Source: an uncultured Gemmatimonadota bacterium (GTDB lineage: Bacteria > SM23-81 > DAOVCL01). Taken from it: a DNA stretch of 60,606 bases. The DNA lies in NCBI GenBank assembly GCA_964626665.1, contig CAZVGK010000005.1:60069-120674 (forward strand), read 5' to 3'. The translations under genes were made by a program, and so were the position numbers. Position 1 is the stretch's first letter, and every line of letters begins with the position of its first letter. The notes under the pieces were generated by a model. The model was not told the DNA's origin. It worked only from the letters and a program-made list of their open reading frames with translations, and searched no databases. Positions 2,242 through 3,681 of the stretch are shown here, in pieces.

Positions 2242-2826
2242 TCAAACACAGATATTTTTGTAACAGCAGTCTATACATTTCGCTCTGTTTCTGGTCTTCT
2301 TCGGATAATATCCATTTTGCACTATTTTTAATATTTCCTCAACTACCCTCAGGGCATTATCAAAATCAGAGGATTTGAACACAACTTCCCGCAAGAGGTT
2401 ATTAGAGCGGACATAGACTAAGAATCCTTTTTCTACTGACTTCCCATAATTCTCCTGAATTAGCAGAGCCTCTAAGGTCAACTGCGTCCTATGGGTTTTG
2501 AAAACATAGGGCCTATATTCAGCGAACTTATACTCTAATGGAGCCATTGTCCCATCAGAGAGGGATAGAACCTCATCTACTATTCCTCGGATTTTATGTT
2601 TAGGACTGGAGAGGTATACAGAAATTTCCTTGTCAATACATCCAATTTTCTTTCGCACATACTCCCGGTTAACCCTCGTTTTCCTTTCATGCACCTCTCT
2701 GCCTATAAGCACCTTGTAACGCAATTCTTGGTGTTCCGGAATCATCAGCACCTGCTCAAAGTAGATAAACCTTGGGCAGAAAAGATACTCTATAACCTCA
2801 GTTGGTGTGACAGAAACATTATTCAT
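2242..2826 (-). CDS. cas4: CRISPR-associated exonuclease Cas4
   Basis: N-terminal YLFCPR, RecB-type GIVD...PLEYK motif, C-terminal CxxCCYxxxC Fe-S cysteines. Confidence 0.95.
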   Translation of the reverse strand: MNNVSVTPTEVIEYLFCPRFIYFEQVLMIPEHQELRYKVLIGREVHERKTRVNREYVRKKIGCIDKEISVYLSSPKHKIRGIVDEVLSLSDGTMAPLEYKFAEYRPYVFKTHRTQLTLEALLIQENYGKSVEKGFLVYVRSNNLLREVVFKSSDFDNALRVVEEILKIVQNGYYPKKTRNRAKCIDCCYKNICV

Positions 2827-2827
2827 A

Positions 2828-2884
2828 AGGAAAAGTGATGAGCAAGGAGCAATGAGTAATGTGCAATGAGCGAAGAGTAGTGAG
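2828..2884. repeat. Heptamer tandem repeats (GAGCAAG/GAGCAAT/GAGTAAT/GAGCGAA), downstream arm of four-helix-bundle cassette 1
   Basis: Inverted relative to 3335-3393; about 49 nt align. Confidence 0.9.
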
Positions 2885-2931
2885 TTTAGGCTAATCTAGG
2901 TTCTGGATAAACGGCTAAATTAATTCCCTTC

Positions 2932-3348
2932 TCACTCCTTGTCTTTTACACCTCCCTTCCGAGATCGAATTAAACCAGAAAGCATTCGGCTGACCTCTGC
3001 TAAGTTCCCATTGAGTACCTCAAACTTTTTCTCATCAAAATAACCAAGCCGGCGACAGATCTCAAATTGTGTATCCAACTCACTCACCGAACCTCTGGCA
3101 ATAATCCAGAACTGCATCTTCTCCTTTGATGATCTTCGGGCACATCCCTCTGCGATATTACTCGGAATGGAAACCACGGCCCTTTGTATCTGTGAAATGA
3201 GGTTGTACTGCTCACTTTTTGGAAAGGTCTTCAGTGTCTTATAGACGTTTACAACCAGATCAACACTTTTTTGCCATATCACCAACCTTCGATGTGGCCT
3301 TTCCTCTGCTATTTGCCTACCCACAATTCTTTTTCCTTCGCTCATCAC
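2932..3348 (-). CDS. Four helix bundle protein (23S rRNA-intervening sequence protein family) #1
   Basis: L-x-x-WQKS...FPKSEQYNLISQIQRAVVSIPSNIAEG...ARGSVSELDTQ signature. Confidence 0.93.
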   Translation of the reverse strand: MMSEGKRIVGRQIAEERPHRRLVIWQKSVDLVVNVYKTLKTFPKSEQYNLISQIQRAVVSIPSNIAEGCARRSSKEKMQFWIIARGSVSELDTQFEICRRLGYFDEKKFEVLNGNLAEVSRMLSGLIRSRKGGVKDKE

Positions 3349-3393
3349 TCCTTGCTCCTTGCTCCTTGCTCATTATTCTTCCCTCTTCGCTCA
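3335..3393. repeat. Heptamer tandem repeats (CTTGCTC)n, upstream arm of cassette 1; contains the cas2 stop codon
   Basis: Minus strand reads TGAGCGAA GAGGGAA GAATAAT GAGCAAG GAGCAAG GAGCAAG GAGTGAT GAGCGAA. Confidence 0.9.
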
Positions 3394-3681
3394 TAGAAAC
3401 AGCGCCTTCACCTCGTCTGTTACCAACTTTTTGTCAAAGGCCTGGCCAATAAGTTTCACTTTGCTAAAGTCATCTTTGCACATAGGGAAGATGTAAACTG
3501 AATCCTTTTCTTCATCAACCAGACTTTTTATCTTCAGGCCCAATTCATCAATCCTGTTGAGGTTGAGGTCACCGAGGAAGACTGACTTCTGCACCCGATA
3601 AATGCCAGTCCCCAGACAGATCTTGGCCACTTTAGTGCGAACCTTATTATCCTGTATGTCGTAGATCACCCAAGTAAGCAT
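3391..3681 (-). CDS. cas2: CRISPR-associated endonuclease Cas2 (start re-assigned to ATG 3681, 96 aa)
   Basis: WVIYDI...RVQKSVFLG...DSVYIFP motifs; GGGGG SD-like sequence before 3681; the longer ORF-track N-terminus is translated heptamer repeat. Confidence 0.95.

Follow-up and report, generated by a model that had tools for sequence, protein, structure and literature searches.

A stretch of 60,606 nucleotides (nt) from an uncultured Gemmatimonadota bacterium (contig CAZVGK010000005.1), referred to below as the window, carries on its minus strand a CRISPR array and, as identified by profile searches, a type I-B cas operon. The spacer between cas2 and cas4 of this operon is filled by a structured insert of about 560 nt, designated cassette 1, which holds a single gene for an intervening-sequence protein (IVP) of the kind found in 23S rRNA intervening sequences (IVSs). 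The reading favored here, at a probability of about 0.55, is that cassette 1 is a resident, IVS-like IVP cassette of a widespread group, in which a small Avd-like gene with a ribosome-binding site of its own is framed by inverted heptamer arrays able to pair into a stem of about 50 bp, and that it would be looped out at the level of RNA, with cas4 being expressed across it. This reading joins two parts of unequal standing: the identity and anatomy of the cassette are by themselves highly probable, and the RNA-level mechanism, which would require the predicted RNA fold, cleavage and translational coupling to occur in vivo, is tentative and put at somewhat below even odds. The features on which the description of the cassette depends are the following, with profile matches in parentheses.

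2242–2826, minus strand: cas4, 194 amino acids (PF01930, 4.6e-13; TIGR00372, 1.5e-38)
2823–2827, minus strand: copy of TATGA at the cas4 start, read from the sequence (TCATA on the plus strand)
2827–2876, minus strand: 3′ arm of cassette 1, pyrimidine-rich tandem heptamers of the CTTGCTC type, pairing with the 5′ arm
2877–2931, minus strand: nonrepetitive 3′ untranslated stretch of cassette 1, from the IVP stop to the 3′ arm, read from the sequence
2932–3345, minus strand: IVP1, 137 amino acids (PF05635, 2.3e-38; TIGR02436)
3335–3384, minus strand: 5′ arm of cassette 1, purine-rich tandem heptamers of the GAGCAAG type, pairing with the 3′ arm
3391–3681, minus strand: cas2, 96 amino acids, with its TGA stop at 3391–3393 and a TATGA at 3391–3395 (PF09827, 3.6e-22)

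The local anatomy had been described in an earlier note on this DNA, and all that it said of the sequence itself was borne out. On the minus strand, cas2 ends in CTATGA and cas4 begins with TTATGAAT, TATGA is repeated directly at 3395–3391 and 2827–2823, and excision of 2828–3395 does on paper restore an ATGA overlap of stop and start, giving ...TTTCTATGAATAATG. The pairing of the arms, which the note had put at about 49 nt, extends over 50 nt of each arm in a local pairing alignment (50 columns with 39 Watson–Crick and 5 G–U pairs, score 65), as compared with a null of 25 ± 4.4 and a maximum of 40 obtained from 60 mismatched pairs of upstream and downstream flanks. This alignment replaced RNAduplex on 260-nt flanks, which was dropped as the whole flanks pair in it (null mean −102 kcal/mol). 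An inverted-repeat search placed the arms at 2829–2875 and 3336–3382 (47 nt, 81% complementary), and the self-identity of the arms is best at a lag of 7, reaching 0.67 in the 3′ arm. The IVP gene is the sole open reading frame (ORF) of the cassette, with its Shine–Dalgarno (SD) sequence, AAGGAG, and its ATG lying within the apical part of the stem and an alternative GTG start at 3348.

The cassette is a discrete unit, as the note had held, and occupies the whole of the cas2–cas4 spacer. In the minimum-energy fold the outermost pair is located 6 nt past the cas2 stop and 0 nt ahead of the cas4 ATG, in agreement with the predicted positions of the stop some 6 nt off the stem base and of the start straight after it. 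The claim that cas4 has no SD of its own likewise holds: the 17 nt upstream of its ATG (GCTCATCACTTTTCCTT) contain no purine-rich SD, and its first methionine can be aligned with five homologues. That the stem brings stop and start together at the base of a helix is further supported by the recurrence of this geometry in homologous loci, in which the outermost pair spans 82–100% of the cas2–cas4 spacer in 14 of 15 structured or IVP-bearing cases. Group I and group II introns are not supported as identities of the insert, since an Rfam scan of 1–7000 at E ≤ 1 matched no intron covariance model and returned the CRISPR repeats and one chance snoRNA match only.

The protein IVP1 is, judging by its sequence, a full-length member of the PF05635/TIGR02436 family, that is, an Avd-like four-helix-bundle protein. 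It matches PF05635 (23S rRNA IVS protein) with 131.1 bits against a cut-off of 33.8, over profile positions 2–106 of 106, and TIGR02436 (“four helix bundle protein”) with 128 bits against a cut-off of 24. A sequence search found solved relatives in PDB entries 2GSC (7.2e-28) and 2RLD (9.6e-6), each with five chains per entry. The models for Avd itself are matched below their cut-offs (PF22296, 7.5e-8, 33 bits vs 40; NF033474, 1.9e-10, 41 bits vs 80). Given the latter result, which falls short of an equivalog cut-off, and because the genome of the window, designated G000 and 99.65% complete, contains no match to the reverse transcriptase PF00078, the cassette is not a diversity-generating retroelement (DGR); no template or variable repeat of such an element is present.

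The age of cassette 1 can be judged from two congeners that carry the same cas locus, G001 and G002, which relate to the genome of the window as ((G000,G001),G002) in the tree of the locus. The nucleotide identities of cas4 are 87.7% for G000–G001, 80.5% for G000–G002 and 82.6% for G001–G002, and those of the 3′ part of cas2 are 91.1, 84.7 and 85.3%, in the same order. An orthologous cassette 1 is present in G002, its IVP being 91% identical to IVP1 and under purifying selection (ratio of nonsynonymous to synonymous divergence, dN/dS, 0.14). The synonymous difference between the two IVP1 genes is 0.25 (dS 0.30), as against 0.49 (0.79) for cas1, 0.60 (1.21) for cas4 and 0.65 (1.48) for cas2, so that the flanking cas genes are near synonymous saturation. 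The gap cannot be put down to a synonymous constraint common to IVP genes, because the IVP that follows the CRISPR array in both G000 and G001 has a dS of 0.39 vs 0.52 for cas4 and 0.47 for cas2. By-eye counts on the alignments show the last cas2 codons and the first cas4 codons to be as diverged as the rest of each gene, no recombination tract is found in the flanks, and the less-diverged stretch stops at the arms; since the border codons are no less diverged, the cassette is a younger island bounded by its arms. This points to an exchange of cassette 1 between the lineages, or to a replacement in situ, at a time later than the split of the cas genes. Within the island, the ORF is 93% identical in nucleotides, the arms, each of which has one 7-nt indel, are about 65–70% identical, and the 2877–2931 stretch is about 68% identical by an eye count.

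Cassette 1 is one of several such inserts in the locus, the other parts of which are listed here.

67–2067, minus strand: CRISPR array, located downstream of cas4 and with 25 of its repeats inside the window (Rfam CRISPR-DR7, 25 matches)
3692–4174, minus strand: cassette 2, between cas1 and cas2 (PF05635, 2.2e-16; arm score 59)
4158–5138, minus strand: cas1 (PF01867, 2.8e-84)
6115–6669, minus strand: cassette 3 (PF05635 match with one TAA inside; arm score 50)
7476–9710, minus strand: cas3 of the type I-B operon
9707–10420, minus strand: cas5b of the type I-B operon
10422–11309, minus strand: cas7/Cst2/DevR of the type I-B operon

The arms of cassette 2, made of GACGAGA / CTCGTYT heptamers, lie at about 4135–4174 and 3692–3726 around the IVP2 ORF at 3773–4138. 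Those of cassette 3, at 6625–6669 and 6115–6159, have a period of 9 and are of the AACCGTTTA type; its IVP gene, starting at 6604, is frameshifted, with the C-terminal helix carrying on in another frame. Between cas1 and cassette 3 the operon also contains a DUF6036/DUF2204 nucleotidyltransferase-like ORF (5339–5890, minus strand) and, beside it, an ORF of 60 amino acids (5880–6062, minus strand), which might form a toxin–antitoxin-like pair.

A survey of 80 homologous type I-B adaptation loci gave 25 IVP hits in 21 of them: 14 between cas1 and cas2, 2 between cas2 and cas4 (locus L044, which matches the G002 junction, and locus L095), 3 after cas4, 5 before cas1 and 1 elsewhere. The identity of IVPs at one site is uncoupled from that of the adjoining Cas1. 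For 15 cas1|cas2 occupants the median IVP identity is 35% (range 19–80%) vs a median of 65% for Cas1 (rho 0.17, p 0.08), and in loci whose Cas1 proteins are 85–88% identical the IVPs are only 19–35% identical; the pair of G000 and G002 is among these, their IVP2 genes being non-orthologous at the same site. Of the cassette-free cas2–cas4 spacers of at least 45 nt, 12 of 28 are strongly structured (z ≤ −2.5) and contain similar kinds of heptamers, with an SD–ATG remnant still held in the loop of several such empty hairpins. One genome, G013, has an empty hairpin at cas2|cas4 and a full cassette at cas1|cas2, both with a CCGT-type unit. Taken together, these comparisons indicate that cassettes occupy, swap and decay at cas1|cas2 and cas2|cas4, decay leaving empty hairpins behind.

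Related arrays are seen in cas spacers over a wider range. The heptamer families CCGTGNT, GACAGAA, GTGTCAG and GTGTAAG recur in those of distant bacteria and archaea (loci L059–L110), often with one family at both cas1|cas2 and cas2|cas4 of a locus, and at locus L071 some 16 GACAGAA units form a direct array without an inverted partner. At the trailer end of the CRISPR array of the window (1–532, minus strand, continuing ahead of the window on contig C5 at about 59040–60068) units of about 161 nt are repeated, with a run of N interrupting them. Each unit combines a CRISPR repeat with a small hairpin rich in GC (CCCGC..GCGGG) and with a mini-cassette that lacks an IVP and has AATTAAG/AATTGAG arms. 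In G000 the last CRISPR repeat is followed by a full IVP cassette whose arms are of this same type, and in G001 and G013 an IVP cassette stands immediately after a CRISPR repeat.

Beyond the cas operon, PF05635 was found in 28 of the 61 genomes searched, and G000 has 16 matches, of which 4 are inside this CRISPR–cas locus (cassettes 1, 2 and 3 and the one just beyond the last CRISPR repeat, outside the window); most G000 IVPs are located in unrelated operons. Arms were scored for 42 IVP genes, of which 13 belong to G000 and 29 to 27 other genomes; one more locus, with too short a flank, was left out. In 29 of the 42 the arms outscore all 60 mismatched controls; 22 of these 29 have one or both arms with a best period of 7, and in most of the others it is 8 or 9. 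Nearly all G000 copies are flanked by such inverted arrays of short tandem units, with a unit that varies from copy to copy (GAGCAAG, GACGAGA, NNNTCAG, GGTAATC, AATTAAG, TTGCAAA and others). By a crude ORF rule, the neighbors of IVP genes lie on the same strand in 28 of 37 cases upstream and 32 of 38 downstream, which is not clearly above the bacterial norm.

The heptamer arrays are in turn more widespread in G000 than the IVP genes. The genome contains 159 windows with period-7 tandem arrays, merged to 131, compared with 18, 5 and 5 for periods 6, 8 and 9, and CTGACAA/CTGATAA-type units are among them. On a crude gene model, under which 81% of the genome is coding, 94 of the 131 are intergenic, the neighboring genes being co-directional in 81 of these 94 cases. 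An inverted partner is present within 900 nt for only 19 of the 131. Among 115 solo arrays, 25% have the exact heptamer of one of eight IVP arms of the same genome, as opposed to 1% (maximum 3%) with foreign sets of arms. The largest heptamer families are AAGAATT (21 arrays) and AGCTATC (11), and several of the AAGAATT arrays have a common flank, ...AATTGCYT, as expected of a dispersed miniature element. One IVP subfamily of G000 is truly mobile: its three near-identical copies (C7:75.7–76.2 kb, C11:79.8–80.3 kb, and across the ends of C59 and C60) encode 100% identical proteins, have outer GTAAC...GTTAC ends, vary in the 5′ arm by a single heptamer and are bordered by target duplications of 8–9 bp (TTTAATTC, AATTGAAA(G) and AATTCTGG). 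At another cassette (G000:C13:61.5–62.3 kb) a 7-nt direct repeat, GGGGAGA, is present at the borders, which could be a genuine duplication or else a ribosome-binding site present twice.

In the model proposed here for cassette 1, the cassette would be transcribed by read-through together with the operon, following which the arms would fold and thereby remove the 560 nt as a side branch, bringing the stop of cas2 to the base of the helix along with the start of cas4, which has no SD. Translation of cas4 would then occur by termination–reinitiation at this base, or after an RNase III cut of the stem, as in the IVP-bearing 23S rRNA IVSs. Read-through transcription is plausible from a scan of 2700–4300, in which no terminator-like sites were found and promoter-like sites are at chance level (3 vs 2.1 ± 1.3 expected), and an RNase III gene is present in G000. 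The gene downstream has evidently stayed in use: cas4 is under purifying selection (dN/dS 0.08 between G000 and G002, both of which bear the cassette) though it has no SD in either genome, and for this reason it must be expressed across the cassette.

It has to be noted that several observations weigh against such an RNA-level mechanism. In 29 stems scored symmetrically, G–U mismatches are as frequent as A–C mismatches (81 vs 76, p = 0.75), and the signature expected of selection on a sense RNA is therefore missing. The arms of G000 and G002 pair with each other across genomes (scores 61 and 54) about as they do within them (65 and 41), which, the arms being cross-compatible, leaves no lineage-specific compensatory evolution. 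G002 does not preserve the exact spacing of 6 nt and 0 nt: there the values are about 13 and 9 nt when the wider region is folded, and 2 and 2 nt when the spacer is folded alone. The base of the helix would be opened by the ribosome itself once it halts at the cas2 stop. Finally, the 23S rRNA gene of G000 is without an IVP (the only large-subunit rRNA match is on contig C22, with no PF05635 there), so that IVS processing is undocumented in this organism.

As there is no wobble asymmetry, the arms are cross-compatible and the spacing differs in G002, a serious rival, albeit an unlikely one, is a foldback process at the level of DNA by which the arms would be kept alike. In this alternative, arm pairing would be maintained by template switching or hairpin repair, the stem would have no role in the expression of cas4, and cas4 would be translated independently of an SD or from a start internal to the cassette. 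Such a process is consistent with the equal counts of G–U and A–C mismatches, with arms that vary by whole 7-nt units on both sides and diverge faster than the ORF between them, with arrays that exist without stems, as most of the 131 do, and with the multiplication of IVP-less miniatures. It fits less well with the intergenic position of most arrays between co-directional genes, which suggests, subject to the crudeness of the gene model, a context at the transcript level; nor does it readily account for hairpins that fill the cas2–cas4 spacers from edge to edge, or for a promoter signal in the cassette that does not rise above chance.

In a second alternative the protein would be a functional partner rather than a selfish passenger, either as a factor that binds heptamer arrays or the stem and controls its own expression through the arms of its cassette, or as an accessory of type I-B spacer acquisition. 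IVP genes are strongly enriched in adaptation modules, both in the loci analyzed here and according to a figure legend in PMC10910872, their cassettes adjoin CRISPR repeats in G000, G001 and G013, and solo arrays share heptamers with the arms of their own genome far more often than with foreign ones. The homologue Avd, moreover, is described as a basic pentamer working on RNA with flanking duplexes in the available text of bioRxiv 10.1101/2023.10.23.563531. Against this, IVPs at one and the same cas site are non-orthologous and do not track Cas1, IVP3 is frameshifted, and most IVPs of G000 are found in unrelated operons. IVP identity is also uncorrelated with the arm heptamer (rho −0.06 over 171 pairs of 19 cassettes, only 2 of the pairs exceeding 50% identity), and the common heptamers could equally derive from decayed or miniature cassettes. 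This alternative is regarded as quite improbable.

The explanation that builds on the earlier note, in which a mobile cassette had recently transposed precisely into an ATGA overlap of cas2 and cas4 and duplicated 5 bp (TATGA), is very improbable. The TATGA repeat exists, its removal restores an overlap on paper with ...CTATGAAT... as the expected empty site, such overlaps are known in this operon family, and the three-copy subfamily with its GTAAC...GTTAC ends and 8–9-bp duplications is mobile in the same genome; cassette 1, however, is without outer terminal repeats of that type, and the repeat itself is not kept. In G002 the orthologous cassette is bordered by CTGTGA at the end of cas2 and CTAATGA at the start of cas4 (GTGA / AATGA), TGA alone being common to both, and at L095, another cassette between cas2 and cas4, the borders are TAA / ATG. 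When 16-nt windows at the outer arm borders are compared, words of at least 5 nt common to both sides occur in 10.8% of 2000 mismatched pairs of flanks vs 5 of 29 real cassettes, one of the five being a real 9-nt duplication in the mobile subfamily. Three of the five letters of TATGA are dictated by the TGA stop and the ATG-A(sn) start, and the A of the cas2 CTA-TGA is a synonymous change specific to G000, both G001 and G002 having CTG-TGA. Because border repeats of this length are reached so often by chance, TATGA is best read as a coincidence specific to the G000 lineage.

An ATGA overlap also proved not to be the norm of homologous operons. In 69 of the 80 loci with a homologous cas4, cas2 lies directly upstream, and only 2 of these 69 junctions (L088 and L090) have a gap of −4 nt, that is, an ATGA overlap, although cas4 starts were called by a rule of our own, so that a few may be misplaced and N-terminal extensions may mask further overlaps. 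The gap is 1–13 nt in 25 junctions, often with GAGG overlapping the stop, 21–65 nt in 23, 72–172 nt in 17, and 479 and 551 nt in the remaining 2, which makes 42 of 69 with a gap of at least 21 nt. Nor is the empty ATGA site, which the note had proposed to seek in relatives, seen in G001, which is without the cassette: the junction there is TGA + 31 nt + ATGAAC, and these 31 nt align with the 5′ arm and with the AAGGAG and ATGA of the IVP start, so that a remnant of the arm stands in place of an overlap. The alignment is most simply explained by a deletion running from the ATGA at the IVP start to the one at the cas4 start, which would have left the arm behind as an SD-bearing spacer; the converse, that the spacer of G001 is ancestral and the 3′ arm of the cassette was made to match it, is unlikely. 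Among the contigs of four DNA runs compared over 2200–4300, no cassette-free cas2–cas4 join was found, and a strain about 88% identical has cassette 1 with a shorter 3′ arm. A joint from 2871 to 3352 would correspond to a hairpin without the ORF, but the support for it (one contig at a depth of 2.9, with a shorter side of 23 letters and 85% likeness) is too weak to be of use. A recent insertion of cassette 1 into an ATGA overlap is, on these sequence comparisons, not supported. A transposon or miniature inverted-repeat transposable element with a target-site duplication was also rejected as a class for the cassette: the border repeat is not fixed between copies, there is no transposase, and the arms differ between cassettes.

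The locus offers a natural test case of how an operon can go on expressing an SD-less downstream gene beyond a structured insert of 560 nt. To our knowledge, the 23S rRNA IVS protein family is large and without a known function, and intergenic heptamer repeats are likewise unexplained; this locus ties the two to each other, and both to CRISPR adaptation operons. A bolder and rather unlikely reading is that IVP cassettes constitute an undescribed class of bacterial and archaeal gene cassette, in which the gene for an Avd-like nucleic-acid-binding protein sits in a tandem-heptamer foldback hairpin that homes, replaces and decays at fixed operon spacers without a transposase or integrase of its own, the product reading heptamer arrays. 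The preferred sites would then be the cas1|cas2|cas4 junctions and the type I-B CRISPR array, and rRNA IVSs would be a special case that happened to be noticed first. If that were so, the intergenic heptamers of Cyanobacteria, Beggiatoaceae, Bacteroidota and the present lineage would be arms of cassettes, their relics, or targets in trans. In the openly searchable literature, which does not extend to subscription journals and supplements, so that a prior description is possible, neither IVP genes in heptamer hairpins, nor their turnover at cas junctions, nor the miniatures of the CRISPR array are described.

The nearest known counterpart of cassette 1 is the IVP-bearing 23S rRNA IVS, of which examples are found in Leptospira and Coxiella. 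In both cases the same protein family is encoded in an insert whose ends pair into a long stem, with the host RNA resuming at its base. Cassette 1 differs in being located in an mRNA spacer between cas genes and in having arms of tandem heptamers, and since it does not reside in rRNA it would work like an IVS without being one. The IVSs are cut by RNase III without ligation, according to the accessible part of bioRxiv 10.1101/2024.02.27.582315.

The Avd protein of DGRs appears from its sequence to belong to a homologous four-helix-bundle family, and in the text available (bioRxiv 10.1101/2023.10.23.563531) the RNA on which this basic pentamer acts has, in addition to the flanking duplexes, Avd-binding stem-loops. 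Unlike the systems in which Avd is found, the present one has neither a reverse transcriptase nor a template or variable repeat, and matches the Avd models below threshold only.

Cyanobacterial STRR (short tandemly repeated repetitive) sequences are arrays of 7-nt units in intergenic spacers. The TAACTGA repeats of Beggiatoaceae, Cyanobacteria and Bacteroidetes are described, in the part of the paper available and with no explanation given, as intergenic heptamers near starts without canonical ribosome-binding sites (MacGregor 2015, PMC4679880), and in that same text the terms “intervening”, “S23” and “four helix” do not occur. The tandem repeats treated in the Subirana paper have units of 20–21 nt and 52 nt, not 7. 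Like the TAACTGA and STRR repeats, the 131 arrays of G000 are made of 7-nt units, mostly in spacers, near SD-less starts; the former are described as direct arrays, whereas here the arrays also form inverted pairs around an IVP gene.

Drosophila foldback transposons such as FB and Galileo have long inverted arms of short tandem subrepeats, a variable arm length, a central coding loop and loop-less miniatures, and they encode or depend on a transposase. The cassettes share the arms of tandem subrepeats, the varying arm length, the coding loop and the miniatures with these eukaryotic elements, from which cassette 1 differs in having no transposase and no duplication. In the ribosome shunt of the cauliflower mosaic virus 35S leader, a short ORF ends just before a long stem and translation resumes beyond it. 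The same order of stop, stem and start had been pointed out in the earlier note for cas2 and cas4; the shunt, however, is a mechanism of the eukaryotic 40S subunit, and no comparable process is known from bacteria or from this locus.

The link of the domain to CRISPR adaptation modules, lastly, has a precedent in the CRISPR-linked “23S rRNA IVP” that is associated with such modules in the legend of Fig. 6B of Altae-Tran et al. 2023 (PMC10910872). The same domain is tied to the same modules in both cases; that legend gives no anatomy, and the arms, the positions at the junctions and the turnover of the cassettes come from the present analysis.

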